Shown: positions 6,395 to 28,424 of the stretch, one piece after another
How the letters are laid out: each line of letters begins with the position of its first letter
Numbering within the stretch: the first letter of the stretch is position 1
Assembly (NCBI GenBank): GCA_963832345.1
Contig: CAWHTW010000005.1
Coordinates: forward strand, 148,512 to 212,511
Origin: an uncultured Flavobacteriaceae bacterium
Lineage (GTDB): Bacteria > Bacteroidota > Bacteroidia > Flavobacteriales > Flavobacteriaceae
Direction: 5' to 3'
Length of the DNA: 64,000 nucleotides
The notes under the pieces: model-generated
The model's database searches: none
Told to the model about the DNA's origin: nothing
What the model saw: the letters and a program-made list of their open reading frames with translations, nothing else
Made by a program: the position numbers and the translations under genes

Positions 6395-7579
6395 TTAAGC
6401 CTTTTTTAAAATAAGATTTTTAAATTTTTTGTAGTAGTAAGTTCTATTGAAGTAACCATTTTCAATAATGAACAGGAATCCGAGATAACTAAAATTTAAA
6501 TTTACCTTAAAGAGAAGAAATACTAAAACCCCCAAAATTGTTACTGCCAAAAAATAACTGACTCCGATTATTATTACATTCAAAATTGGGAATTTTAGCA
6601 ATACCGTCGTTAATTGATCTTTTGGGGTTTTTATGACAAATGAAACTGCTAAAAAAGTTACCCACAAAAACAAAATAAGTAAAAATGAAATTTGATTATA
6701 TCCCTGTTTTAAGGATAGGTATGTGTTAAGTAGAATCAGTGGACCCTGTACATCGCCATAGATACCTTGATGGGTATCCGAATAAAAATCCCCGATGACA
6801 ATCAACCTATCTTTATAGTACCCCGGTAGGTTTTCTTTAGATACTGAAAGTAATTCACCTATATCCATGACAGGGTACTCCTTGGTTTCAAACAAATGAT
6901 AGTTTCTTATGCCCAAATAAGGTATAAAATCATTTGGCATAATTTTATTATCTAAAATATTCCACAACCAGAAACTTTTTGATTTACCACTGTGAATTTC
7001 CCCATACATTTTTAGCGGCAAAGATTTAGTATCTGTTTCTGTATTAAAGAGTCTATATTTATAAAATATACCACCAGCTTTATCAATAGATCCTAATCCA
7101 AAATTCAAATCTTTAAAAATCTTTGGAATTAAATCAAATGAATCCCTTTGGGGTAGTATATATCTTGGTTTTTCAATGAGAATTTCTTTTAGTTCTGCGT
7201 CATCCGGGGATGCATGGTCAAAAAAAATGTCACATAAAATGTACTTATAGCCGATACTGTCCTCAATTCTCTCAAAAAGGGTCTTTAATTTATTTCGGTC
7301 AGTAATTGGGACATTTCCATAGGGAAATCCACTTTCATCAAGATTATCAACAAGTATATTTTCAAAACTTGTATTGATTAATAATAAATCATTAAAACTA
7401 GGGACCTCGTTTCTTCCTATAACCTTCTCCTTAATAAAGTGGCTGAAAAGAAGAACATTGGCGTCAATGGCTGGAAAAAGATAAATGGTCTGTGAGATAA
7501 ACAAAAAAATTAAACTTAATGTAGCATTGATTGTACAAAACCGTATCATCTTTCTATTTCGTTCAAGAAATCTTTTCAT
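6395..7579 (-). CDS. CHASE2-like extracytoplasmic sensor domain membrane protein. No output domain
   Basis: One N-terminal TM segment, a ~300-aa extracytoplasmic domain, then three C-terminal TM helices. This is the CHASE2 topology. It overlaps the upstream gene by 4 bp. The region is very AT-rich. Confidence 0.55.
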   Translation of the reverse strand: MKRFLERNRKMIRFCTINATLSLIFLFISQTIYLFPAIDANVLLFSHFIKEKVIGRNEVPSFNDLLLINTSFENILVDNLDESGFPYGNVPITDRNKLKTLFERIEDSIGYKYILCDIFFDHASPDDAELKEILIEKPRYILPQRDSFDLIPKIFKDLNFGLGSIDKAGGIFYKYRLFNTETDTKSLPLKMYGEIHSGKSKSFWLWNILDNKIMPNDFIPYLGIRNYHLFETKEYPVMDIGELLSVSKENLPGYYKDRLIVIGDFYSDTHQGIYGDVQGPLILLNTYLSLKQGYNQISFLLILFLWVTFLAVSFVIKTPKDQLTTVLLKFPILNVIIIGVSYFLAVTILGVLVFLLFKVNLNFSYLGFLFIIENGYFNRTYYYKKFKNLILKKA

Positions 7580-8337
7580 AATAGGTCAAGGACATCAATT
7601 CCATAAATAGTAACTAAATAATCGGAAATGAGATTTGAAGTTTCTTCCTCTGAAATCCCTTTTTTAACTAAATAATTCCTGTAAACTTTAATTTCTTCCT
7701 TTATTTCTGAAATTTGCTTAGGAATGAAAACCATCATTTTGATATTTCTTGATTTGTTGTCGATACCATCGTAATAATAAATCTGACATCCTTCAATGGT
7801 CTTAGCAGATCTATTTGATATATCAATTACGGAATTATCTATTTCTAAAAAACCTTTAGCATCGATTGGCAATCTTCGCTCCATAACATCCCCTTTATTT
7901 GATGTTAGTTTTAGGAAATAGTGGCTCGCTTTAGAGTTTAGTCTTTTAGATATTTTAATTTTTTTAGAATTTAACAATTTACTATTCTCAAAAAAAAGAT
8001 AGGTATAATTGGCGATTTCACCCCTTGTACCTGTATAATCCTTAATTGGGAGTAGATTTTCCTTTAAGAAATAAAAAAACTCCCCGTTCGGTATGCGTTC
8101 TTGCCTCAAAGGGGACAAAACCAATCTTCCTCTAAAGTTGCTCAATAATATTGAGATATCATCCTCAGAAGAAAATCTAAAATTTGGATTACCTTTAAAT
8201 TCATCACCAATTTTTAAATAGGCTTTGGCAGTATCTATTTTTATATTTCCTCTGACATGAAGTACATGGAATATTTCCTGAGAAAATCCATTAAGGTACA
8301 GTATAGATGTACTGAGAAGAAGAATGACATTTTTCAT
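7576..8337 (-). CDS. Secreted protein, possibly FecR-like. First gene of the operon with the CHASE2 gene
   Basis: Signal peptide MKNVILLLSTSILYLNGFSQ. The segment HVRGNIKIDTAKAYLKIGDEF...DISILLSNFRGRLVL has a FecR-domain-like periodicity. It is translationally coupled to the CHASE2 gene. Confidence 0.4.
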   Translation of the reverse strand: MKNVILLLSTSILYLNGFSQEIFHVLHVRGNIKIDTAKAYLKIGDEFKGNPNFRFSSEDDISILLSNFRGRLVLSPLRQERIPNGEFFYFLKENLLPIKDYTGTRGEIANYTYLFFENSKLLNSKKIKISKRLNSKASHYFLKLTSNKGDVMERRLPIDAKGFLEIDNSVIDISNRSAKTIEGCQIYYYDGIDNKSRNIKMMVFIPKQISEIKEEIKVYRNYLVKKGISEEETSNLISDYLVTIYGIDVLDLL

Positions 8338-8348
8338 GATTAACGTCC

Positions 8349-11300
8349 TTGATTGTAAAAATATTAAAATTTAAAGATATGTTAAAAAAACAAAGATTCT
8401 ATAAAGACTCCGGACAATTGAAAACATGGTTAATAGCTATTTGCATCATAACAGCTTTATATAGTATTTCGAATCATAAACTATATGCGCAGGAAAGAAT
8501 TTTAATCGAAGCCCAAAAGGGCATAGATATCGCGAAGACCTCCTTTGAAAATGGACAACACAATAAAGCCATTTTGTTAGTTCAAGGTGTCAAGAAAAAT
8601 TTGATACAAGAAGGTAATTTAAATCAATTCAATCATTTCGAGACCTACTATCAAGCTACAAATCTTGAAATGTCAATAAATCAAAAAATTAATCAACCTC
8701 TAAAAAATTATAACCTTTTCAAATCTCAAAGCGTTGAATTGAATAAAATGATGCGCTCTGACCATATCAGATGGTATTTCTTTGATTCTAGGCTAAACGA
8801 ACTTTTGTTCTTGTTTAAGTCACGTAATACAACTATCACCATCATAACTGATTTGGAAATACAACTTAAAAAATTGAAGTTTTTTTTGGATTCCCTTTCT
8901 TTTGAGAACAATAGCATTAAGACCAATATACACGATTTGATTGTTACGTATGAAAGAATTTATGCCATTACCGAAGATATTTTGAACAAAAAGGTCGTAA
9001 AGTCAAGAGATTATGAAAGCCTATTGGAAGATAAAAAAATGATAGAAGAGAATCTTGTCATTAAAGTCTTTAATAAAAAGGAAATAGACCTTTTGGGATT
9101 GGGGTATGATTTTACCGGTTACAAGAGGTGGTCAAATTATACAGGAATTTTCCAAGATGTTAGTCTTGCGAAGAATGAAATTGAACGTGTGAAAACAATC
9201 ATTAGTCATGGATTTTACAATCGGGCAATTGAAAAATCCAATTTATTGTTGAAAGAATTCAATAGCTATTATCATGAGAACAACTTACCTCAAACCTCAT
9301 TGCTTTTCAAGGAGGCTATATACCAGAATCTTTCAAAAGCCCACCTAAAATTAAAGAATTTTGAGGATTCCAAATACTTTTTAGATAGCGCAAAAAATAT
9401 TTACAACAATATAGATTACAGCTACAAAGAAGGTTCTAGAAGGTTTAAGTATGAAAATCTTTACATAGATTATTACTTATTTGAAAAGGAATACAATGAG
9501 GCCATCAAATATGCCTTGTTAAAGTTAAATTTTAGTCCGTATTACAAGGGGGAAGCTGGTCAAATAGCAACCCTTCATTATGCTGCAGGAAATTATGATG
9601 AGGCTATTCAGTACCACAAAAAAATTTCGGAATGGAATAAGAATGAGCTTAAAAAATATGGGGGTTTTTCTGAGAATAAGACTTTGGACTGGTTTATTGG
9701 CAATGCCTTCTTAGCCAAAGGCGAAATAAAAGATGCAGAGGCTTATTTAAATCCTATTTTTATCGAGTTGACCAATAAAGATAAACTAGATTCTGAAGAA
9801 GAGGATTTACTTCGGGTTTGTTTGATTGATTTAGCTATAATTAATTCAATAAACCGAAATTGGGAAACCGCTGACATTTTGATGTCCACGTATTTAAGAA
9901 ATTATTCCACACCCATATTTCAACATTTGCTTTCGGCGACAGAGAACGATAGAGATGACATTCTGCTCGAAGATTATTACAATCCAGATGTAATATTCAA
10001 TTATCTCTCAAATAGAAATTCTAATACTGGGGAAGTCGTTGGTGGGGGCTACAATGTCGCGCTACTATCAAAAATGCTATTGTTCGAAGTCTCCCGAAAA
10101 ATTCCTCAGATAGTTTCCAGAAGCAAGAACAAAGTTATGAGGGAATTGAATTCTAGATTACTTGAGATAAAACATGCTCTAAAATCTGTTGATGTGAAGG
10201 AAAAGGATTCGTTAATGGACTACGCTAGATATTATGAATGGGAGATCATAAATACATGGAAAGACCCAATTTTAAGTGGGTTGAGCGGGTCACTGGTAAA
10301 TTGGAAAAATATTCAGGATAAATTGAATTATGGCGAGGCTGCTATCGAATTTATCACCTTTAGGCCATATGGATTTGAGAATAATAATAAAGAGGTAATA
10401 TATGGAGCTTTCATAATTGGAAAGGGCTATGAATGGCCAAAGTTTATTACTTTATTTTCAGAAAACGAATTGAATCTCTTATTAAAACCTTTCAAGGACA
10501 CCAAGCAATCAGATAAAGAAAAAATTCAAGAGATTTATGAAGCTAAGGGCGAAAAAATTTATGAGCTGATATGGGAACCTTTAGAGAAGTACCTAATAAA
10601 CATTCCGAAAATATATTATTCTCCTGCAGGTATTTTGAATAGCATTGCCTTTTCAGCTTTAAAAAATAAAGAGGGAAAAGCAATTTCAGATAGACATTCC
10701 CTCGTTCGATTAGTGAGTACAAAAAACATCTCTGATTCTGAAAATTTTGCCAAACTTTCTGGAGTCGTTTTATTTGGTGATATAGCTTACAACGCCGCAA
10801 ATAGATCCGGCTTTAAAGAGGTTTCTGAAGAAACTTCGAGAGGCTCTTCATTTAATAGTTTGCCGGGGACAAAGAAAGAAATTGATGAATTGAACAAGAT
10901 TCTCAAATCAAACAATATTGAAAGCCACCAATATGATCAAATGTTCGCCAGCGAGGAAAATTTATTTAAAATATCCAATGATAATTCAATAGATGCCATA
11001 CACATCGCAACTCATGCATTCTATATACCACCTTTGGAAGAAGACGAACTTCTTTTCACACCAATGATTGGTTGGTCAATTTTTAAGGAAGAAGATGACC
11101 CCATGAATCGTTCCGGACTTGCGTTGTCGGGAGCAAATCAATTTTGGTTAAGTGGAAATCCAATAAATCAAAATGGATATGATGGCATATTGACAGCAAA
11201 TGAAATCTCAAATTTGAACTTAAAGGGTATTAAATTGGTCGTACTTTCAGCTTGTGAGACTGCATTGGGAGATTCCAGGGATAACGAAGGGGTTTTTGGT

Positions 11301-11516
11301 TTGCAAAGGGGATTGAAAATGGCTGGTGTCGACAATCTTTTATTATCTCTTTGGAAAGTTGATGATCAGGTAACCCAAGAATTCATGGTAGAATTTTATA
11401 AAAAGTTGATATCCAATGACTATTCAATTGAGTCAGCATTCTACAAAACACAAAGTCAAATCAAGAATAAGTATCCAGACCCATATTATTGGGCGGCATT
11501 TGTGCTAATTAGATAA
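8349..11516 (+). CDS. TPR-repeat protein with a C-terminal CHAT (caspase-like) peptidase domain. A likely signal peptide suggests the true start is at M11 (8379)
   Basis: 1055 aa. N-terminal h-region WLIAICIITALYSISNHKLYAQ-E. Many TPR-like Y/F/A-rich repeats. The C-terminus has the CHAT catalytic dyad motifs IHIATHAFY (His) and LVVLSACETALGD (Cys). It is divergent from the CHASE2 operon. Confidence 0.85.
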   Translation: MIVKILKFKDMLKKQRFYKDSGQLKTWLIAICIITALYSISNHKLYAQERILIEAQKGIDIAKTSFENGQHNKAILLVQGVKKNLIQEGNLNQFNHFETYYQATNLEMSINQKINQPLKNYNLFKSQSVELNKMMRSDHIRWYFFDSRLNELLFLFKSRNTTITIITDLEIQLKKLKFFLDSLSFENNSIKTNIHDLIVTYERIYAITEDILNKKVVKSRDYESLLEDKKMIEENLVIKVFNKKEIDLLGLGYDFTGYKRWSNYTGIFQDVSLAKNEIERVKTIISHGFYNRAIEKSNLLLKEFNSYYHENNLPQTSLLFKEAIYQNLSKAHLKLKNFEDSKYFLDSAKNIYNNIDYSYKEGSRRFKYENLYIDYYLFEKEYNEAIKYALLKLNFSPYYKGEAGQIATLHYAAGNYDEAIQYHKKISEWNKNELKKYGGFSENKTLDWFIGNAFLAKGEIKDAEAYLNPIFIELTNKDKLDSEEEDLLRVCLIDLAIINSINRNWETADILMSTYLRNYSTPIFQHLLSATENDRDDILLEDYYNPDVIFNYLSNRNSNTGEVVGGGYNVALLSKMLLFEVSRKIPQIVSRSKNKVMRELNSRLLEIKHALKSVDVKEKDSLMDYARYYEWEIINTWKDPILSGLSGSLVNWKNIQDKLNYGEAAIEFITFRPYGFENNNKEVIYGAFIIGKGYEWPKFITLFSENELNLLLKPFKDTKQSDKEKIQEIYEAKGEKIYELIWEPLEKYLINIPKIYYSPAGILNSIAFSALKNKEGKAISDRHSLVRLVSTKNISDSENFAKLSGVVLFGDIAYNAANRSGFKEVSEETSRGSSFNSLPGTKKEIDELNKILKSNNIESHQYDQMFASEENLFKISNDNSIDAIHIATHAFYIPPLEEDELLFTPMIGWSIFKEEDDPMNRSGLALSGANQFWLSGNPINQNGYDGILTANEISNLNLKGIKLVVLSACETALGDSRDNEGVFGLQRGLKMAGVDNLLLSLWKVDDQVTQEFMVEFYKKLISNDYSIESAFYKTQSQIKNKYPDPYYWAAFVLIR

Positions 11517-18100: not shown

Positions 18101-18349
18101 ATGGAGCCACTACCGGAAGAATTACAGGACAACCAATACTATATCGAATTGTTGGATGCCTTGATCGAGGAGAACGATATGGAATTGAAACACCGCTTGC
18201 AAAAAGCGGATACCTATGGGCAGTTCGTCAATGAACAGGCCGGAATGATAATGGACAGGACCATTGAACATATCCGGGAGAACGAATCATCGTTTTCAAT
18301 AGCCTCATCCATAGTATTAGATGAATGGAAAAAACGCATGTTTTCCTGA
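18101..18349 (+). CDS. Small acidic hypothetical protein upstream of the coupling protein
   Basis: 82-aa ORF. Its end overlaps the start of the T4CP gene. Confidence 0.35.
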   Translation: MEPLPEELQDNQYYIELLDALIEENDMELKHRLQKADTYGQFVNEQAGMIMDRTIEHIRENESSFSIASSIVLDEWKKRMFS

Positions 18350-20885
18350 TTACAGACCAATACTCCTTAACCCGCTCAAAAAAATAATGGACGATAGAAA
18401 GATGGCCTTTTCCGCTATGCTGATTTCCACCGCGCTCTTTATGGCCATCGGTTTTATGGACTATTATGCATTGGTCCGCTACCACCAGTGGGACAATACC
18501 TTAACACAAATAGTTTACCGATTTTTTACCAAGTTCGAACTCTTAAGACGGCCCTATTACGGCAAGCTACTCCTTCTGATGCTGATTACCGGATCGGTAT
18601 TGCTCTATAACCCTAAAAAGAAGGAAGGAAAATCGTTGGGCCAAGGCCTGTTCCTCTATATCATGGGTAGTTCTTTATTATTTCTCCCGGACGTTTTCAA
18701 CTATACGACTGTAATTACGGCATGGAGTTCCCTAGGCATCTATTTTCTAGGATTCGTTTTTACGTTATCCGGTGCCGTGCATTTATTTCAGGTGATGAAC
18801 TTTACCAATGCGGCAACGAAAGATCCCTTTAACGACGAGAACGAAACCTTCCTGCAAACCGAGAAACGTATCGAAACCCCCTACTCCGTAAACATCCCCT
18901 ATGAATACCGGTACAAAGGGAAAATCCGTCAAGGCTGGATCAATTTTGTAAACCTGTTTAGGGCCCTGTTGATTGTCGGAACGCCTGGGAGCGGAAAATC
19001 GTTTGCTCTTATAGAGGAAATCATCGAACAGTTGACCAACAAACTGTTTACGCTATTGGTCTATGATTTCAAGTTCGATACGCTGAGCAAGATTACCTAT
19101 AACTATTGGCTACGAAAAAAGGAACAGCTTAAACACAATCCTGAAAAACTGGCACTGTTGCCCGAGTTCTATGTAATCTGTTTTGACAACGTGGAAAAAT
19201 CCCACCGCTGTAATCCTATCAACCCTTATTTGTTGAAAAGCCAAACGGACGCTTCCGATGCCGCCACCATCATCATGAAAAACCTGAACCGGGAATGGAT
19301 CAAGCGCAACGATTTCTTCTCCAAAAGTGCCATTAGCTTTGTGTCCGGCCTCATTTGGTACCTCAAGAAAAAATCGGAGGAAAAGGGCATCAATATCTGT
19401 ACGCTGCCCCACGTCATTATCCTGTCCACCGTAAATATCGAATACCTGTTGCAGATCATGTTGGAGGATATCGAGGTACGGAGTCTGATGATTCCCTTTA
19501 AGGATGCCCTGGACCGGGAGGCCGTGCAGCAATTGGCCGGGCAAACGGCAAGTGCCCAAATTTCTCTGTCGATGTTGGCCAACAAGGAAATTTTCTACAT
19601 CATGACCGGCAACGATTTCCAGTTGGACCTGAACAACTCCAAAAAACCGAAAATCCTTTGTATCCAGAACAATCCGGACCGTTCCGAGATCTATTCCGCC
19701 CCAATCGGCCTGTACATCAATAAAATTCTACAGGTGGTCAACAAACCGGGCGGGCGGCCTTTAGGTCTCATTTTGGACGAGCTCCCCACCATCTTTATCA
19801 TGGGCCTGAGAAAGATCATCGATACCGGAAGGTCACATTATGTAGCGACCGTTTTGGGCATACAGAGCATTTCCCAATTGATCGCCGACTACGGAAAGGA
19901 ATTGGCGGAGGTAATCTTCGACAATTGCTCCAACGTCTTTAGCGGGGCCGCCAAAGGGGAGACCGCAAGGCGCATCAGCGAGATTTTCGGAAAGATCCAT
20001 CAGGAAAAACACGCCAAGACCATTTCAAGGAACGATACTACCACCAATATCAGCACCGCCATGTTGGAAATCCTGCCCAAAAGCAAGATTACCGGCATGT
20101 CAACTGGGCATTTCGGGGGAATCGTCGCGGACACCTTTGAAAACCAGATAAAGAACAAACTCTGTTATGGATTGGTAAAGCCCAATATGGAATCGAAAAA
20201 GATCCAGGGCAAATTCGACTTCCCGATCATCAACGATTTTAAACTTCCCGACCACGATGAACAGATGTCAGAAAAAATAAAATCGTTAGGTGAACTGGAT
20301 TTTTATGACAGAATAGCCCAACTGGATTGCGGCCAGGTCGATTACATCGACTTTTACAACGGCTATATCAATGATTTTGCAGGGAAACATTATGGGGAAC
20401 AGGAGGAAAGGGACGGTTTCATGGCCCTGGTCAGGGAACTGAAACTTTTTGACCATCTCCAGATTATCAAGGAAATTAAAAATGGAGGGAAACCCAATCA
20501 AGACCTGGAACATTTTGTGTCCGGACTGGTGGATCGGATGCTCGTTCAACAGGAAATCGACCGGATATTGAACGATAACTTTCTCGATGTCATAAATGAT
20601 GTCGACACACTGGTAAGGGACGAATATTATGAATTGACCGGCGAACACCTTGAATCCGCCATTTTTGATAAGGACAAGGTGGGCGACGAGGTGGACGAAG
20701 CTATCGACCAGGAGCGCGAGCTTTCCTATCATTACGTACACCAGTTGGAAGGCGACGGTTCCGAAGAAAAAGCTACTTTTGAAAGAAACGATACCATCGG
20801 GGACGAGCGTTTATTTGTTAATGACAACGACGATGACAATACCTACTACTCCTCTTATCCCGTAGAAGAAATACAGCACAAATGA
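18321..20885 (+). CDS. Type IV coupling protein (VirD4/TraD-like conjugative ATPase) with a long acidic C-terminal extension
   Basis: Two N-terminal TM helices. Walker A LIVGTPGSGKSFAL and Walker B LGLILDELPT. 854 aa. A later Met (MDDRK, about 18387) is a plausible true start. Confidence 0.85.
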   Translation: MNGKNACFPDYRPILLNPLKKIMDDRKMAFSAMLISTALFMAIGFMDYYALVRYHQWDNTLTQIVYRFFTKFELLRRPYYGKLLLLMLITGSVLLYNPKKKEGKSLGQGLFLYIMGSSLLFLPDVFNYTTVITAWSSLGIYFLGFVFTLSGAVHLFQVMNFTNAATKDPFNDENETFLQTEKRIETPYSVNIPYEYRYKGKIRQGWINFVNLFRALLIVGTPGSGKSFALIEEIIEQLTNKLFTLLVYDFKFDTLSKITYNYWLRKKEQLKHNPEKLALLPEFYVICFDNVEKSHRCNPINPYLLKSQTDASDAATIIMKNLNREWIKRNDFFSKSAISFVSGLIWYLKKKSEEKGINICTLPHVIILSTVNIEYLLQIMLEDIEVRSLMIPFKDALDREAVQQLAGQTASAQISLSMLANKEIFYIMTGNDFQLDLNNSKKPKILCIQNNPDRSEIYSAPIGLYINKILQVVNKPGGRPLGLILDELPTIFIMGLRKIIDTGRSHYVATVLGIQSISQLIADYGKELAEVIFDNCSNVFSGAAKGETARRISEIFGKIHQEKHAKTISRNDTTTNISTAMLEILPKSKITGMSTGHFGGIVADTFENQIKNKLCYGLVKPNMESKKIQGKFDFPIINDFKLPDHDEQMSEKIKSLGELDFYDRIAQLDCGQVDYIDFYNGYINDFAGKHYGEQEERDGFMALVRELKLFDHLQIIKEIKNGGKPNQDLEHFVSGLVDRMLVQQEIDRILNDNFLDVINDVDTLVRDEYYELTGEHLESAIFDKDKVGDEVDEAIDQERELSYHYVHQLEGDGSEEKATFERNDTIGDERLFVNDNDDDNTYYSSYPVEEIQHK

Positions 20886-21283
20886 AGAACATAGAAGAAT
20901 TGCAGAACGCCAAGGCCAAGGATTTTAAATTTATCGGCAAGCGATTAAAAAAAATTCGTGAAGAACTCAAGGAGAACGACGATGTGGAAGACAAACGTTT
21001 TAGCCGGTTTTCCGCCAAGAACGTATCCGAAAGTCTGGGTGTGGAATACAATGCCCTGATCAACATAGAACGTGGTACCATATCCGTGCTTACCATGAAG
21101 GCAATTCTGTTCTATCACAGCCTTGGGTACAATCCCATGTGGATATTGTTGCCCGACAACGAGTTTATTCCCAAACAGAATATCGGGGACAATCTCGTGT
21201 ACCAGTCCGATGTACAGGATTCTTATAAGGAAATGGAAAATACAATAGTGGCAGCTTTGACGGAATTCAAGGGTAAGATTTAA
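20882..21283 (+). CDS. XRE-family helix-turn-helix transcriptional regulator
   Basis: HTH_3-like segment FSAKNVSESLGVEYNALINIERG. 133 aa. Overlaps the T4CP stop by 4 bp. Confidence 0.7.
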   Translation: MKNIEELQNAKAKDFKFIGKRLKKIREELKENDDVEDKRFSRFSAKNVSESLGVEYNALINIERGTISVLTMKAILFYHSLGYNPMWILLPDNEFIPKQNIGDNLVYQSDVQDSYKEMENTIVAALTEFKGKI

Positions 21284-21347
21284 AGTATTTTGCCTAGCAT
21301 AGTTAGGAATAGGGTTTAAATTATTTAACAAAAAAGGTGTTGTACTA

Positions 21348-22337
21348 ATGGAAATGCAATCGCAATTTGAACATATTATCCAATTGATCGAAAAGGCGAA
21401 ACAACGTGCCTTTCAAAAAGTAAATACCGAAATTATCGATCTTTATTGGCAAATCGGCGGGTTTCTTCACCAAAAGGTCGATGCGGCCAATTGGGGAAAG
21501 TCGGTCGTCAATGAACTGGCCGATTATATAAAGACCGTTCAGCCCAACACCAAGGGGTTTTCGTCCCAAAATCTATGGCGGATGAAGCAATTTTACGAAA
21601 CCTATAACGGGAACAAAAAACTCTCGGCACTGCTGAGAGAAATTCCTTGGTCGCACAATATGGTCATAGTATCGGGTGCTAAAAGCGATGGGGAGAAAGA
21701 GTTTTATATGAAATTGGTAAAAAAGGAAAGGTTGTCGCTTAGGGAGTTGGAACGCCAACTGGACAGCTCTTATTATGAGCGTGTAATGCTGGGCAAGGCA
21801 AAACTCTCGGCACTGCCGAGAGAATTCCCACAGGACATTACCAGCATCTTCAAGGATACCTATGTTCTGGAAATGTTGCAGTTGCCCCAGACGCATTCCG
21901 AAAATGAGCTCAAAGGCAAAATAACGCAGAACATAAGCAAGTTTCTATTGGAGTTCGGAAGGGATTTTGCCTTTATGGGCGAAGAATACCCATTACAGGT
22001 AGGAAATCAGGATTTCGCCATCGATCTGCTGTTTTATCATAGGACCCTTCAATGTATGCTGGCCGTGGAACTCAAAATAGAGCGGTTCAAGCCCGAGTTT
22101 TTGGGACAGCTCAATTTTTATTTGGAGGCATTGGACAGGGATGTGAAAACCAAAAATGAAAATCCTAGTATCGGCATCTTGCTCTGCAAGGGAAAGGATG
22201 ATACCGTGGTAGAATACGCCCTTAGCCGCAGTTTGTCGCCTACCTTGGTGGCGGACTACAAAACCCAATTGCCGGACAAGCGCGTGTTGAAAGAGAAATG
22301 GCAAGAGATACTAGATCAATTGGATGAAACCGATTGA
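21348..22337 (+). CDS. DUF1016 / YhcG-like PD-(D/E)XK nuclease family protein
   Basis: Family-typical N-terminus (FEHIIQLIEKAKQRAFQKVNTEIIDLYWQIG) and a C-terminal PD-ExK block IDLLFYHRTLQCMLAVELKI. Confidence 0.75.
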   Translation: MEMQSQFEHIIQLIEKAKQRAFQKVNTEIIDLYWQIGGFLHQKVDAANWGKSVVNELADYIKTVQPNTKGFSSQNLWRMKQFYETYNGNKKLSALLREIPWSHNMVIVSGAKSDGEKEFYMKLVKKERLSLRELERQLDSSYYERVMLGKAKLSALPREFPQDITSIFKDTYVLEMLQLPQTHSENELKGKITQNISKFLLEFGRDFAFMGEEYPLQVGNQDFAIDLLFYHRTLQCMLAVELKIERFKPEFLGQLNFYLEALDRDVKTKNENPSIGILLCKGKDDTVVEYALSRSLSPTLVADYKTQLPDKRVLKEKWQEILDQLDETD

Positions 22338-22617
22338 GGGAAAATGCGATATATTTCAATAGGTCTTACTATAGTCGCAACATTTCATTTGGAATAGAAG
22401 AAACGCCCACGCCCTTATTTTTTTTATTTACTTCTAATTTTAAATCTTTTATTTGATATCCAATACGTTTTAAATCTTTGTAAAAGGTGCGTTTTGTAAA
22501 GAGTTCAACATTAATACTCCATACTTCAGAATGTAATTTATATTTTATTTACGATAGGGCCTAGATTGTTTTTTTTGAGGAAAGCGAATAATTTTATTTT
22601 TAGAGTCCTCACACACA

Positions 22618-23949
22618 TTAACAAGGATAATCATTTTCTACCATTTCAATTAACTTCTCGGATGGTGTCAATCTATATCCTTTCAATAATTGAGAAGCTA
22701 CTCTATAGACAAGTTCTACATTTACCATATTACCTAAAACACGAAACGAGGCAGATTTTGTTTTCGGCAATTTAATGCTATCAGGAAGTGATTGAGCCTT
22801 ACATCCTTCCTCCGGGAGAATATATCTCATGTATTTTCCGATAATTGGTACTTGTGTAGATACCGTAACCAATGATGGCAAATAATTATTTTTTTTAACT
22901 CTAACCCCCGACCCCCTAAACTGAATCAGTTTATCGGTAAATAGTCTCTCGCCATTTGGGCAGTTCCATTCAAATTTTTTCCAGCTTTCCACTTTAAATT
23001 TTCGAATTTTCCTCAGTGTACCTAAACTAATATAATCCTTGTTAACCTTGTAAAAATTCCGATTGTTGTTGATATATCTCTGCTTCCATGATGGAGGAAG
23101 ACCTAATTGAGTTTTCACGTAATTAGGCAAATTTTCACGAACTTCTTCTAAACTATTGCAATTCTTCAAAGGATATCCGTAAGCCCCTTTATGCTTTTGC
23201 CATTCAGAAAGAGATAGTGAATTCCATTTTACATCTACTGGATAATTTGCACCAAACTCCATAGACCATAAAGGTCTATATGGCTCCGTTCCCGCAGGAA
23301 GTTCATTGATGAATTCACCCCAAGTTTGCAGCACTTCTATTTTCTCCCTTTCTAAATTTGAAGTGGTTTCTTCCTTAGATATTATACTAGTTACGGAATT
23401 GACATATTTTTCCTCCTTTACCCATTCAATGTTTTTTATATCATCACGATTTAAACTGCCGACAACGAAAATTCGCTCTCTATGTTGAGGAATATTTATA
23501 TAATGGGGGGAAAGAATTCTTTTATCAAAAAAATATCCCAGGTCATCAAGTTCTTTCGAAATATAATCCCACGTATGACCAGAATCATGAGTAACTAAGT
23601 TCCTAACATTCTCTAAGATGAAAAATTTTGGTTTATGATAAGATAAAATTTTTAAAATTTCATCAAATAACTTACCCCTTGCTTCTTTCATTCCGTTTTG
23701 ATTCCCAGCCTTAGAGAACGTTTGGCACGGAAATCCTGCACATAGTATATCGTGTTTAGGTATTTTTTTAATATCAATTTTGGTAATATCACCATGACAT
23801 TGAAGGTCATGATTTTCTTGATAGAGGAGTCTTAGTTCATTACTCAACTCTGATGCAAACACACATTGGTGTCCAAGTTTTTCAAGCGCAATATGAAAAG
23901 CACCAATTCCTGCAAAGAGATCAATAAATTTTAAATTTCCCCCTTCCAT
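22618..23949 (-). CDS. DNA (cytosine-5)-methyltransferase
   Basis: C5-MTase motifs I (IDLFAGIGAF), IV (GFPCQTFSKAG), VI (ILENV), VIII (QHRERIFVVG) and X (VLGNMVNVELV) are all present. 443 aa. Confidence 0.9.
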   Translation of the reverse strand: MEGGNLKFIDLFAGIGAFHIALEKLGHQCVFASELSNELRLLYQENHDLQCHGDITKIDIKKIPKHDILCAGFPCQTFSKAGNQNGMKEARGKLFDEILKILSYHKPKFFILENVRNLVTHDSGHTWDYISKELDDLGYFFDKRILSPHYINIPQHRERIFVVGSLNRDDIKNIEWVKEEKYVNSVTSIISKEETTSNLEREKIEVLQTWGEFINELPAGTEPYRPLWSMEFGANYPVDVKWNSLSLSEWQKHKGAYGYPLKNCNSLEEVRENLPNYVKTQLGLPPSWKQRYINNNRNFYKVNKDYISLGTLRKIRKFKVESWKKFEWNCPNGERLFTDKLIQFRGSGVRVKKNNYLPSLVTVSTQVPIIGKYMRYILPEEGCKAQSLPDSIKLPKTKSASFRVLGNMVNVELVYRVASQLLKGYRLTPSEKLIEMVENDYPC

Positions 23950-24789
23950 CTATACAATATTTTTATTTACGAAATCTATAATACTTTTGTTCAAGTCATC
24001 ATCTGTAGGAGAATAATATTTTATTATTCTAGCTCGATCAAATACCATAGAATTTCCAAATTGTGAATGGGCTCTTCTTAATTTCTCCGAATCTAAAAAA
24101 TATACTACGCTAAGCAATGTTGTAGGAGGTTTTATTGCAAACGTAATGTATTCGTCTTGCCATCTTTGATATATGGCCTTTTTATCATTGTAATGTTTAC
24201 CAACACAGGCTTGTCCTAAAACAATTAAATTACCTATGTTTCTTCCGTCCAATGGCTTATATACGATAAAATCGACTCCATCATCCTGTGCCCTCTGGGG
24301 TAGGTTCGAAAAGATTCCCTCGTTCTCCTTTATATCATTCGATATCTGTCTCAATCTTTCCTCGGTAAGGTTTGACCTGCCCTCTCCAACCATAACTATT
24401 TCCGCTCCTTCACCTAAAAAATTTTTAACGGCATTGGCGGATATGTATTCAAATAGTTCCGCTGAGCCGTCAATATTTGCATTTGTCCCTCCCGTCTCCG
24501 ATTTAAAAGCCAAAAAGCGATGAAGGTATTTTTTTATATTTACTTCCTCATTGTCTTCGACATTAAGAATACTAAACCCGTTTTCTGGTGTTAAGATATT
24601 CAGATTATACATCTCAGTAAACCTAAATTGTAGTTGTGTTAATTGGTTCTTTCTATATTCCAACCTATTAATAGTCTCAATTTCTTCCTCGGGAAAAGTT
24701 TCACTTAAAAACTCATCGATAATTTCTTCAAATTCGATATGCGGTTCTAAAAGGGATATCCTATTTTCTATAACATCAATTTCTCTCAT
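23950..24789 (-). CDS. Hypothetical protein. It may be the nuclease or specificity partner of the methyltransferase
   Basis: 279-aa ORF abutting the MTase start codon (stop-start with no gap). A possible degenerate PD-(D/E)XK-like block (DDGVDFIVYKPLDG...LIVLGQACVGK). No confident domain. Confidence 0.4.
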   Translation of the reverse strand: MREIDVIENRISLLEPHIEFEEIIDEFLSETFPEEEIETINRLEYRKNQLTQLQFRFTEMYNLNILTPENGFSILNVEDNEEVNIKKYLHRFLAFKSETGGTNANIDGSAELFEYISANAVKNFLGEGAEIVMVGEGRSNLTEERLRQISNDIKENEGIFSNLPQRAQDDGVDFIVYKPLDGRNIGNLIVLGQACVGKHYNDKKAIYQRWQDEYITFAIKPPTTLLSVVYFLDSEKLRRAHSQFGNSMVFDRARIIKYYSPTDDDLNKSIIDFVNKNIV

Positions 24790-24796
24790 ACCCGAT

Positions 24797-25915
24797 TTAA
24801 TCGATATCTAAAGTAACATTAGTACTTTCGACTTTATCAACTACGTTGGCCCCATATAGTTTTTTCAACTCCTCCCTATTATCAGGTTGTGTATTCCCCC
24901 AATTTTGCTGAATATGGGTTAATGACCTATGTATACTCGTGCATGAATTTTTAATAATGTTGTCGTATGAATCGGATAGTAATAAGGCAGCATCCTTATC
25001 TTCACCTCTTTCAAAAGCTTTCGTAGATATGGGGTTTTTCAATATCGGTTTGAGATATTTATTCAGTTCCCTACTCTCTTTTATTGGTGGATTTGCCGTA
25101 AACACCCACCTAATCAGGTTTTTGGTCTCGTTTTCCTTGTCCTCCGGGATAATATTTTCATAATCCTCAGGATCTAGCCTGTTATAACTATCAATACCGA
25201 TGTAATTTGCAACAGATGTTCTTCCAGATTTGCCTAAAGCAACTTCGAGTAGCGAAAACTTATTTTCGATTTTAGCTTGTAGAGAAGAATCGGATTCTAT
25301 CAATTTTTGCATAGACTGAAAAATGCAATATTTATAAAAATGATTCAGGACATCCGATCTACTATTGTTTGTCTCATCAACAAATTTTGTTATTGCAGTA
25401 CTTACAAGATTACTATCTAATTTTCTTCTTTCTTCAAGGACCTGTTTATACACATATTTGGATTGCGCAAGTGGCTCCCATCTAACTACACCTCCAAGGT
25501 GTCTAACCCCCAGATAAGCTGTTACACTGTCTCTATCGTTAGCTTTTACGACAGGTATAGTCGAAAGCCTCTCCATCAACTCATCACTTGCAATGTAATC
25601 ATCCCTTCTTCCCAAAGAGATTGAATTATTTCTATATTCTTCGTCGCAAAGTATCTTAACGGTAGTCAGCCTCCTATTGCCTTCGACTACGATGTAATTA
25701 TCTTCCCCATCATTTGCAGGAATGACGACCATAGGTTCAACAGGAAAATATCCGTTTTTGAGAATTGAATCTTTCAGGTCATTAATTCCAAAATTATCAT
25801 AGATAAATTTAGCAAGATTAACTTGAGTTATCTGAGGAGAAATACTTTGATGAATTCTAGGGTTCTCTTTATCCAACAGTAATTGGCTCAAAGGAATGTT
25901 TTCAATTACGAACAT
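24797..25915 (-). CDS. ParB/Srx-like nuclease N-terminal domain protein
   Basis: ParB box motifs LDKENPRIH and VVEGNRRLTTVKIL (GxxRxxA-type). 372 aa. It is the first gene of a tight three-gene operon with the MTase. Confidence 0.65.
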   Translation of the reverse strand: MFVIENIPLSQLLLDKENPRIHQSISPQITQVNLAKFIYDNFGINDLKDSILKNGYFPVEPMVVIPANDGEDNYIVVEGNRRLTTVKILCDEEYRNNSISLGRRDDYIASDELMERLSTIPVVKANDRDSVTAYLGVRHLGGVVRWEPLAQSKYVYKQVLEERRKLDSNLVSTAITKFVDETNNSRSDVLNHFYKYCIFQSMQKLIESDSSLQAKIENKFSLLEVALGKSGRTSVANYIGIDSYNRLDPEDYENIIPEDKENETKNLIRWVFTANPPIKESRELNKYLKPILKNPISTKAFERGEDKDAALLLSDSYDNIIKNSCTSIHRSLTHIQQNWGNTQPDNREELKKLYGANVVDKVESTNVTLDID

Positions 25916-26131
25916 AGGGACTGGCGTCTTTTAAGCAAAAATATACAATATTTTTAGAGTACGGTGTGATAATTATTTTTGGGTATGTACCAATAAACGC
26001 TGTTCAAAGGGTCACAAGAGGTTTATATATTAAAATAACAAAAACTTTAATAACCTGAATTATGACATTGCTGTGTTCAACCCATAAGTGCTACACGATT
26101 AGGATTTTCAAATAGGTACACTGTCCGTTTG

Positions 26132-27847
26132 TTAAACAAAATTGCCTTTGAACCTTCCATAATCCGTAAGCTCATCTCGAAACCCGTTGAAAACTTCCAC
26201 TTTATGATAACTGGATTTCCCTAGCAGTGAACTGAACGCGTACACACTTCTTCGCATAAGACGGGCGAGTTTGGCGTTCACTTTATTATTGGCAGCGGCC
26301 ACTATTTTTTCCCGAAGCCCATTTTCCAAGTGAAACTTTAAGATTTCCGGCGCTAGATTTGGCCGTATACCGTCGTTGGCAATCATAAATGCGGCCTTAT
26401 CGTACAACCGCTTTTCAATCAAGTACGAAACCCATAGATTTTTGAGGTGACCTTGCCCTTGCCTTGTGATATCATCGAGTATAGGTCTTTGGCCATTAAG
26501 CAAAGCGTCCAGATCTTTCGAGGTCGATAGGTACATTTCGGTCTTTTGAAGTAGCGGTATTCCTTCGGGGAATTTCGAATAGATGGAGTGCAGGAAGATG
26601 TTTTGGTCCTTCTTAATGAAATAGAATCCCTTATGGTTGAAAAGTCGAATGTAATCCTTGGCCGATTTTTCAAAGGGAGCATGAAGTTTTTCCGCTGTAT
26701 TTTGATACGCCTTCAAACTCAATTTATCAAATTTCCGGCGATTATTATCCGACATGGCCATGTACAGCCTTGGAAAAATTACCGGAAGGAAGATAGCACT
26801 GCCATTAATTCCGGCTTCCTCATGGGATAGGTCATTGACCAATGCATCAAGCACTTTTTCATTCTGGTTGATAAATCCGGTCGAAACATAGGACTGGGCG
26901 GTTTCGGGCACACTAAAATTGGATATGGCCATGGAAACCTGATGCCTGTTCGAATTAAGATAGGCTATATTGCCCCGTACATATTTTACTCCAAGACTTT
27001 GCAAAAGGTCAAAAACGATGGCTTTTTCGGTTTTAACGTCGAATATATCTTGATCGAAAACGTTTTTGATTAAGGGCGCCTTACGATGAAGTACTTCCTT
27101 CTCCTTTTTACTTTCGTCTACATAAATGGCATTTTTGGTATGATCGAATTCCGACTTTACGATAGTCTCCAACGAGTTCCGGTTCTTATGGAGATAGGTG
27201 TTCAAGAAGGCAAAACTTTCGGAAGACCGTACAAATGGCATTAGACCGTTTATGTTGTTGCCCCTAACAAATTCGGACAGCAGACCTTCTTTGTAACCGT
27301 TCAAATAAGCGGTGTAAAAGGCATTTCCGATTAGTTTACGGACTTCCAAAACCATTTGTTTGCCACCGAGGTCCAATTCCGTTTTGATGCCACTATCATC
27401 CCCGACCAAGACCGGATTTGTTCCAAAGCCGATATGGGAACTGATTTCGGAGCTTTGAAAAAGATATCCCGATTTATCGAAAATCGTAAAATTCAATGCC
27501 TTGCCATCTTTATCGAATAGCACTTTGGCTTCGATTTTCTGGTACGCTTTTAAAACCGCTGTAAAGTCTTTCGGGTTGATACGCTTAAAAAGTTGAAGGG
27601 TGGTCAACACTTGTTTTTCCAACCTTTTTCTATGCATAGGCAACAATTTGGACTGTGATTGCTTTTTGAAAATAGCCTGAAGTTTTGGACCGCTCAATCT
27701 TGGGTGGACGGTGTACCCATCGATAAATCGTGATCTGTAGCCGTTGTCGATGGCAACCCCATAGGAGACACCGATACGTCCTTTGCCATTAGTTACGGGT
27801 TTTACGACAACATGATAGGGTGCCACCAACTGGCCAAGCTTCTGCAA
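26132..27847 (-). CDS. C-terminal portion of the MOB relaxase, or a relaxase-associated protein. It overlaps the N-terminal relaxase ORF in a different frame
   Basis: 571-aa ORF that begins inside the last 59 bp of the 211-aa relaxase ORF. No NTP-binding motifs. The same DNA encodes ...FAEAWPVGG* in one frame and MQKLGQLVAPYHVVVKPVTNGK in the other. Confidence 0.5.
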   Translation of the reverse strand: MQKLGQLVAPYHVVVKPVTNGKGRIGVSYGVAIDNGYRSRFIDGYTVHPRLSGPKLQAIFKKQSQSKLLPMHRKRLEKQVLTTLQLFKRINPKDFTAVLKAYQKIEAKVLFDKDGKALNFTIFDKSGYLFQSSEISSHIGFGTNPVLVGDDSGIKTELDLGGKQMVLEVRKLIGNAFYTAYLNGYKEGLLSEFVRGNNINGLMPFVRSSESFAFLNTYLHKNRNSLETIVKSEFDHTKNAIYVDESKKEKEVLHRKAPLIKNVFDQDIFDVKTEKAIVFDLLQSLGVKYVRGNIAYLNSNRHQVSMAISNFSVPETAQSYVSTGFINQNEKVLDALVNDLSHEEAGINGSAIFLPVIFPRLYMAMSDNNRRKFDKLSLKAYQNTAEKLHAPFEKSAKDYIRLFNHKGFYFIKKDQNIFLHSIYSKFPEGIPLLQKTEMYLSTSKDLDALLNGQRPILDDITRQGQGHLKNLWVSYLIEKRLYDKAAFMIANDGIRPNLAPEILKFHLENGLREKIVAAANNKVNAKLARLMRRSVYAFSSLLGKSSYHKVEVFNGFRDELTDYGRFKGNFV

Positions 27848-28424
27848 AACTGCGGACTTTGTATTTTTGAAGGGTGCTATTCAGAATATCCTGGATATAA
27901 AACTTTACCCCGTTCGAGTCGTCCTTTTTGATTTCAGGAAGACGATATAGCGGTAGTTCCTTGTTAAACTTTTTTTCGGGAGATGGCGACAGCCCGAACT
28001 GTTGTTCCAAATAATTTTGGGTTGCACTGTTTCTCCGATAATCATGTGAAAGATCTATCAAGTTTCCATCTTCTTTAACCGTACTGGAAATAATATGAAC
28101 ATGCTGATGTTGGGTGTCGAAGTGACGAACCACTACAAAAGGTTGTTCCCCATAGCCCATGTTTTCCATATAGGCCTTGGACAGTTTGTAGAAATCCGCG
28201 TCGTTCAATCTCTCGCCATGGGGCAGGTTTATTGAAATATGGACATACCGTTTTTGCGATCCATGACGGCTGCCCAGATGATGTAAAATCCTCGTAAATT
28301 GTTCTTTGGTCGTATCCGTTTCGGAATAGGTATTTTGAAATCCGAGCACCCGCATTTTGGCTTTGTCGAACACATATTTAACAACGCCATGGACACTTTC
28401 CCGATACAGAATCCGTGCAATCAT
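27789..28424 (-). CDS. mobB: Conjugative relaxase, N-terminal catalytic domain (3-His MOB_P/MobB-type)
   Basis: Catalytic Tyr region near the N-terminus and motif HFDTQHQHVHIISS (HxDxxHxHxH). The call is only 211 aa. It is translationally coupled to the upstream mobA. Confidence 0.7.
   Translation of the reverse strand: MIARILYRESVHGVVKYVFDKAKMRVLGFQNTYSETDTTKEQFTRILHHLGSRHGSQKRYVHISINLPHGERLNDADFYKLSKAYMENMGYGEQPFVVVRHFDTQHQHVHIISSTVKEDGNLIDLSHDYRRNSATQNYLEQQFGLSPSPEKKFNKELPLYRLPEIKKDDSNGVKFYIQDILNSTLQKYKVRSFAEAWPVGGTLSCCRKTRN

Follow-up and report, generated by a model that had tools for sequence, protein, structure and literature searches.

What are a gene for a ParB-like protein, a gene without a recognised domain and a gene for a C5 cytosine DNA methyltransferase (MTase) doing together in one tight operon, inside the transfer region of a mobile element? 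The question is raised by a 64,000-nucleotide stretch of DNA from an uncultured Flavobacteriaceae bacterium (GenBank assembly GCA_963832345.1, contig CAWHTW010000005.1, positions 148,512 to 212,511; hereafter the window), in which an original prediction made from the sequence alone had placed such a block between a coupling protein and a relaxase. Both neighbours lie where they were said to lie (TraG-type type IV coupling protein, T4CP, 18321-20885; relaxase domain, 27789-28424), and an open reading frame (ORF) scan reproduced the coordinates and lengths of the three closely packed minus-strand genes. These encode a ParB/Srx-fold protein of 372 aa (24797-25915), a protein of 279 aa from an unannotated family with a winged helix and a PD-(D/E)xK nuclease fold (23950-24789) and an MTase of 443 aa (22618-23949). 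Seven nucleotides separate the ParB-like gene from the nuclease gene and none separate the nuclease gene from the MTase gene, where TAG is followed directly by ATG. We think that the trio is probably a self-contained, horizontally acquired module of the restriction-modification (R-M) type, in which a complex of the ParB-like protein and the nuclease makes up the restriction half and the MTase protects self DNA. Within a widespread and uncharacterised family, the trio represents the minimal form.

That the three genes belong together is best seen from their neighbourhoods in other genomes. At least 561 ParB-like loci were confirmed in a species-level genome collection, spanning Bacteroidota, Actinomycetota, Planctomycetota, Acidobacteriota, Pseudomonadota, Nitrospirota, Chloroflexota and others, and 80 of these loci were fetched for neighbourhood analysis. 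A homologue of the nuclease directly follows the ParB-like gene in 76 of the 80, and three of the four exceptions (L016, L035 and L050) lie on very short or truncated contigs. The gap between the two genes has a median of -4 nt, with an overlap in 48 of the 76 pairs. Similarity matrices of the ParB-like protein and the nuclease are strongly correlated (Spearman rho 0.86); the values are 0.59 for nuclease and MTase and 0.47 for ParB-like protein and MTase (Mantel p = 0.001). A C5 MTase ORF is present within ±6 kb of most pairs (67 of 76), directly downstream on the same strand in 30 and upstream, divergent or convergent in the others, and two pairs have an N6_N4 MTase in its place. The trio itself recurs on a small integrase element in Arenibacter, in a defence island of a member of the Marinifilaceae beside Abi_2 and DUF2971 genes, on an Elizabethkingia and a Neisseria chromosome, and on an actinomycete integrative and conjugative element (AICE) in Microbacterium. 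Its carriers include Elizabethkingia anophelis CP121098 and Arenibacter sp. F26102. Because it is found in chromosomes, islands and small integrative elements, the cassette is not tied to conjugation, and its recurrence in such unrelated contexts bears out the view that the three genes are one functional unit. In a plasmid collection, neither a megablast search with a 10.5-kb region nor a tblastn search with the nuclease gave a match, and the ParB-like query gave five distant matches, two of which were inspected. At one locus in a Gemmatimonadaceae metagenome-assembled genome (L032), a Mutator-family transposase gene (6867-8087) stands between a split ParB-like gene and the nuclease gene, an inactivation of the pair by an insertion sequence element.

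The second protein of the operon had been described as having no clear domain, and we found no match for it in Pfam, NCBIfam, PADLOC or PDB sequences; 45 diverse relatives likewise had none in Pfam or NCBIfam. Its AlphaFold2 (AF2) model is confident (pLDDT 89.7, pTM 0.90) and predicts an N-terminal winged helix followed by a C-terminal PD-(D/E)xK domain. Residues E114, D169-x-G-x-D173, Q193 and D251-R-x-R254 are invariant throughout the family, and the DSSP topology puts E114 in the core helix, D173 at the start of beta-2 and Q193 in beta-3, the canonical placement. E114, D169/D173 and Q193 (with K198/K203) are candidate catalytic residues. The broad family consensus, G-Q-C-K, gives a D...QxK site as in MspJI/Mrr; the clade of the window reads GQACVGK. 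The family is small and coherent: its 489 clusters at 50% identity contain only stand-alone proteins, about 190-410 aa long, and no fusions. The protein is thus a nuclease of the restriction endonuclease (REase) fold that lies outside the described families. The closest solved folds are the MspJI/Mrr-type and SdaI-type nucleases, and SdaI likewise has its winged helix at the N-terminus and its nuclease domain at the C-terminus; however, there is no detectable sequence similarity to any of them, no SRA-like domain and, in the clade of the window, no Lys at Q+2.

The first protein of the operon contains both of the ParB-box motifs that had been pointed out in it, read in translation as LLLDKENPR and VVEGNRRLTT. 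Its layout is that of ParB: an N-terminal NTP-binding domain (D15-x-x-N-P-R20 and E78-G-N-R-R82), a predicted central helical DNA-binding region like that of KorB and ParB and, in a confident AF2 model (pLDDT 93.4), a C-terminal long helical hairpin that looks to be of a dimerisation type. KorB is its best structural neighbour and the fold itself is ParB-like, and a profile alignment sets VVEGNRRL on the GERR box of Noc and ParB. Among 55 homologues, down to 23% identity, D15, N18, R20, E60, E78-G-N-R-R82, H139, G142 and W146 are invariant. Of the profiles that the original prediction had named for checking the pair, PF02195 (ParBc) is not reported at E ≤ 0.1, the DUF262-type GmrSD_N match stays below threshold (23 bits; cut-off 33.2 bits), and a profile search of the 279-aa partner finds no DUF1524. 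TIGR00180 matches the ParB-like protein at E = 1.5e-4, with 21.6 bits against a cut-off of 58.45. Among PADLOC models, the PD-Lambda-5_A profiles align with the N-terminal part of the protein (profile positions about 3-165 of 466, E = 3e-22), as does PDC-M38A, and PD-Lambda-5_B has no match among the five window proteins scanned. The conserved box and the modelled fold make it a candidate NTP switch of the ParB-CTPase fold, which would bind or hydrolyse CTP or another NTP and close on DNA as a clamp. The NTP specificity of such proteins cannot be predicted from sequence (PMC12704722).

The third protein is, as claimed, a complete C5 cytosine MTase. It matches PF00145 (231 bits; cut-off 22) and TIGR00675 (221 bits; cut-off 100.65) over their full length, and of motifs I, IV, VI, VIII and X, by which completeness was judged, FAGIGAF, PCQ, ENV, QHRER and GNMVNV are read in the translation. 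Residues 5-206 match M.HhaI (E = 1e-47), and the variable (target-recognition) region is large, at roughly 200 aa (about residues 171-375). The MTase lineage of the window partners 38 of 61 complete trios, and identity in the variable region averages 0.45. One hallmark of a type II R-M system is therefore present, an MTase gene adjoining the gene for a REase-fold nuclease, but the nuclease does not come from a described REase family. Of the suggestion that this could be a type II system with an extra ParB-like component, what stands is a probable R-M-type system with a ParB-like partner. The obligatory nature of that partner, seen in 76 of 80 loci, argues against a nuclease that cuts alone, without NTP, at the site of the MTase.

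How might such a module work? The C5 MTase would mark its target sites in the DNA of both host and element, and restriction would be the task of a two-protein unit produced from translationally coupled genes. We infer that the two proteins form a complex whose activity depends on an NTP: the ParB-like protein would be an NTP-gated DNA sensor or clamp that tells unmethylated from methylated DNA and then recruits or licenses the winged-helix PD-(D/E)xK protein, which would cut the DNA. Carried on a conjugative element, the module would be cargo for defence and, in addition, a device for addiction or stabilisation. A more specific scheme, which we offer only tentatively, is that a ParB-type NTP-gated clamp loads at unmethylated sites, slides, and delivers or activates the nuclease, which would make the family a distinct mechanistic class of R-M. 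The clamp would then provide the self/non-self sensing and the long-range communication that in type I enzymes fall to a helicase-type motor and in type III enzymes to a sliding switch.

Several observations weigh against an R-M module of this kind. Three pairs (L023, L043 and L048) lie between housekeeping genes, and no DNA MTase is found within ±6 kb of them; attack on unmethylated DNA by such a pair should be lethal unless the genome has an unlinked MTase. Another pair (L062) sits within a type I R-M locus. No domain of the pair clearly co-varies with the variable region of the MTase, all values of rho being 0.35-0.47. In the nuclease, the Lys of the Q-x-K site is replaced or displaced in the clade of the window (QAC...GK), so that the geometry of its active site is uncertain, and the nearest solved nuclease, MspJI, is modification-dependent. 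In the ParB-like protein, the Glu of the GERR box, which ParB E-to-A mutants show to be needed for CTP hydrolysis, is an Asn (GNRR).

Some of these points would be better accommodated if the pair were a modification-sensing effector of a type IV-like or SspE-like kind, a split analogue of GmrS and GmrD. In such a case 5-methylcytosine (5mC) would be the self mark, much as host phosphorothioate is for SspE, or the attack would be directed at differently modified foreign DNA, and the MTase would be a co-travelling partner and not a classical protector. This idea is kept alive by the pairs without a linked MTase, the L062 locus, the GNRR box, the displaced Lys and the likeness to MspJI, the best solved neighbour, which is 5mC-dependent and has a D...Q(xK) signature. 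It is also in keeping with the weak GmrSD_N match and with the logic of GmrSD, SspE and BrxU (PMC4619093, PMC9646914, PMC12065111), in which a ParB/DUF262-superfamily NTPase and an endonuclease act as sensor and effector; GmrS and GmrD can even be separate genes (PMC4619093). However, those systems act on modified DNA, have no cognate MTase in the operon, and possess a DGQQR box and a DUF1524/HNH nuclease, whereas the cassette of the window has an EGNRR box, a PD-(D/E)xK nuclease with no DUF1524/HNH domain and a linked C5 MTase, and its GmrSD_N score is under the cut-off. For 67 of 76 pairs there is a linked MTase, in many cases translationally coupled and co-evolving, so that a 5mC-dependent cutter would be self-destructive, and we judge this explanation distinctly unlikely. 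Unlikely, too, is that the locus is an ordinary type II R-M system in which the ParB-like protein does no more than control transcription, as a C-protein or a KorB/VirB-type regulator would, and times nuclease expression after transfer to a new host. The ParB-like gene does lead the operon, its best structural neighbour KorB is a transcriptional repressor, a helical DNA-binding region is predicted in it, and a short motif (described below) is present at the operon promoter and again just before the MTase start. Yet that motif is limited to close relatives, and a protein of 372 aa with an NTP-binding box invariant across phyla far exceeds known C-proteins. Moreover, its coupling to and co-evolution with the nuclease (rho 0.86) hold even at loci with a distant, divergent or missing MTase, and the same pair is found within multi-ATPase restriction clusters.

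The two remaining explanations are essentially excluded. The position between the T4CP and the relaxase of a conjugative element, together with the ParB-MTase fusions known on mobile elements (PMC12704722), had led to the proposal of an anti-restriction or establishment device, in which the MTase pre-protects transferred DNA with the aid of a ParB-like DNA binder. We find this very improbable: the MTase is neither an orphan nor fused to ParB but is coupled to a nuclease that is always present and has conserved candidate catalytic residues, and the match to the PD-Lambda-5_A models is confined to the shared N-terminal domain. The cassette also occurs in non-conjugative contexts, in chromosomal islands and small integrative elements and not specifically in conjugative leading regions, and its composition is that of recent cargo, not of the element backbone. 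Scarcely credible is a role of the ParB-like protein in partition or centromere binding for the element, with the adjoining R-M genes unrelated to it. The protein has the ParB fold and a TIGR00180 match, and some records do annotate ParB, among them a Persicobacter plasmid record that mislabels the gene as a partition protein, but the TIGR00180 score is far below its cut-off, and in the window the gene has a relaxase and a nuclease as neighbours and no adjacent ParA. Elsewhere a (deviant) ParA-type Walker A motif is found in only 2 of 80 loci, the coupling to the nuclease is strict, and the gene occurs in chromosomal islands. The original prediction had noted that a standard REase beside a separately conserved partition ParB would reduce the locus to an ordinary type II system and an unrelated gene; the protein that we find is distinct from partition ParB and tied to a nuclease of its own.

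Comparison with known systems places the R-M module that we favour near several of them. With ParB, KorB and Noc, the CTP-gated clamps, the ParB-like protein shares the fold of the N-domain, the GxRR phosphate-binding box, the helical DNA-binding region and a C-terminal helical domain; it differs from them in having GNRR for GERR, an obligate nuclease partner, no ParA or partition context and scores below the ParB cut-offs. A related ParB N-domain is tied to DNA methylation in PD-lambda-5 and in the ParB-MTase fusions of phages and plasmids (PMC9519451, PMC12704722), but the MTase of the window is a separate C5 enzyme and only the N-terminal part of the PD-lambda-5 profile is matched. In logic, the arrangement of R and N proteins in CglI and NgoAVII, NTP-dependent type II R-M systems composed of M, R and N proteins (PMC4267653), is analogous, as is the sliding switch of the type III enzymes to the proposed ParB-like clamp. 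The multi-gene R-M neighbourhoods that combine MORC/paraMORC (GHKL) proteins, an SF2 helicase and Dcm (PMC2292703) are also among the closest known systems. Surveys of ParB-fold and ParB-DUF262 defence systems list MTase fusions, HNH fusions, GmrSD, PD-T4-2, Dazbog, SspE and Menshen, but not this pair. The impression that the system did not correspond to a described type was thus correct as far as the searchable literature and PADLOC go, although there may be putative listings in REBASE.

These results have implications for how ParB-type proteins are understood. ParB-CTPase-fold proteins are increasingly seen as nucleotide switches beyond chromosome segregation, and little is known of what they do on mobile elements; the present family offers a compact three-gene setting in which such a switch has an obligate nuclease and a dedicated 5mC MTase. 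Several hundred species at least, from many phyla, have it, yet its nuclease has no Pfam, NCBIfam or PADLOC model. The probable R-M system with a ParB-type partner is widespread and unannotated, and it is suggestive as to mechanism. Should the ParB-like protein gate restriction, this would be a new coupling of nucleotide use to DNA cleavage in R-M. It would account for the recurrent "hypothetical protein" and mis-annotated "partition protein" genes beside Dcm genes and would supply defence-finder tools with a new model. For the element, the cassette is likely to be a cargo for defence and addiction, with consequences for what becomes of DNA that enters the host.

Base composition delimits the cargo. 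The AT-rich block had been described as including an HTH gene and a DUF1016 gene, but only the trio and the two intergenic regions that flank it are AT-rich (GC 0.29-0.36 overall, 0.34-0.36 in the genes). GC at third codon positions (GC3) is 0.28-0.32 in the trio, compared with 0.55 in each of the HTH and DUF1016 genes, 0.59 in the T4CP gene and 0.48 in the relaxase gene. Because the HTH and DUF1016 genes share the composition of the T4CP and relaxase genes, the foreign cargo is the three-gene cassette alone, at about 22338-26131. Its downstream limit is the spacer between the convergent DUF1016 and MTase genes (22338-22617, GC 0.29), in which no intrinsic terminator was predicted, and at its other end lies the upstream intergenic region with the putative operon promoter (25916-26131, minus strand, GC 0.33). 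Neither the HTH gene nor the DUF1016 gene is a conserved neighbour of the cassette, and this, with their backbone composition, places them outside the system to which they had been assigned. The 133-aa HTH-like ORF (20882-21283, plus strand) is there as described, but its XRE label is weak (HTH_19, E = 0.0015, 18.8 bits; cut-off 30.2 bits). Its start overlaps the T4CP stop in an ATGA (20882-20885), and it is therefore likely to be co-translated with the transfer genes and not to regulate the cargo. The YhcG/DUF1016 gene was correctly identified, with profile matches to DUF1016_N and YhcG_C (21348-22337, plus strand). Its PD-(D/E)xK product has a match to PDC-S02, which PADLOC lists as a single-gene defence candidate (E = 1.7e-125); because its GC3 is backbone-like and it is not conserved beside the cassette, the gene probably belongs to the element as a defence candidate in its own right.

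Upstream of the ParB-like gene, TATTTTTG (25943-25936, minus strand) resembles the TAnnTTTG-type -7 box known as a Bacteroidota consensus, and by this resemblance we assign it as the putative operon promoter. Overlapping it is the 12-mer AAATATTGTATA (25953-25942, minus strand), about 27 nt before the ATG of the ParB-like gene. This 12-mer has exactly two copies in the 64 kb, and the second (23951-23962, minus strand) spans the stop codon of the nuclease gene and reaches the MTase start. AAATATTGTATA may act as a promoter or operator and place the MTase under control of its own. Similar ATATTGTA copies precede the ParB-like gene in Arenibacter, Marinifilaceae and Elizabethkingia. As a family-wide operator, AAATATTGTATA was rejected, since it is upstream in only 1 of 80 loci. 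Terminator and promoter scans gave counts that did not differ from those in shuffled sequences.

Two further features of the window lie outside the cassette. The gene for the MobA/VirD2-type relaxase (26132-28424, minus strand) is split near position ~27840 into ORFs of 211 and 571 aa that do not share a reading frame. Over 12.2 kb, an independent read-based assembly (Logan ERR12040027_54219; our locus L094) is identical apart from one A fewer here (GCAGAGC versus GCAGAAGC), and it encodes a single relaxase of 763 aa; the split is due either to an error in the assembly or to a genuine frameshift that inactivates the gene. Another block of strongly AT-rich sequence is present at 6395-11516 (GC about 0.30-0.34), near a drop in GC from about 0.49 to about 0.30. 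It encodes a 1055-aa TPR and CHAT (caspase-like) protein (8349-11516, plus strand) and, divergently from it, a 394-aa protein with a weak CHASE2-like match and an unannotated protein of 253 aa, and may be another conflict or defence cargo.

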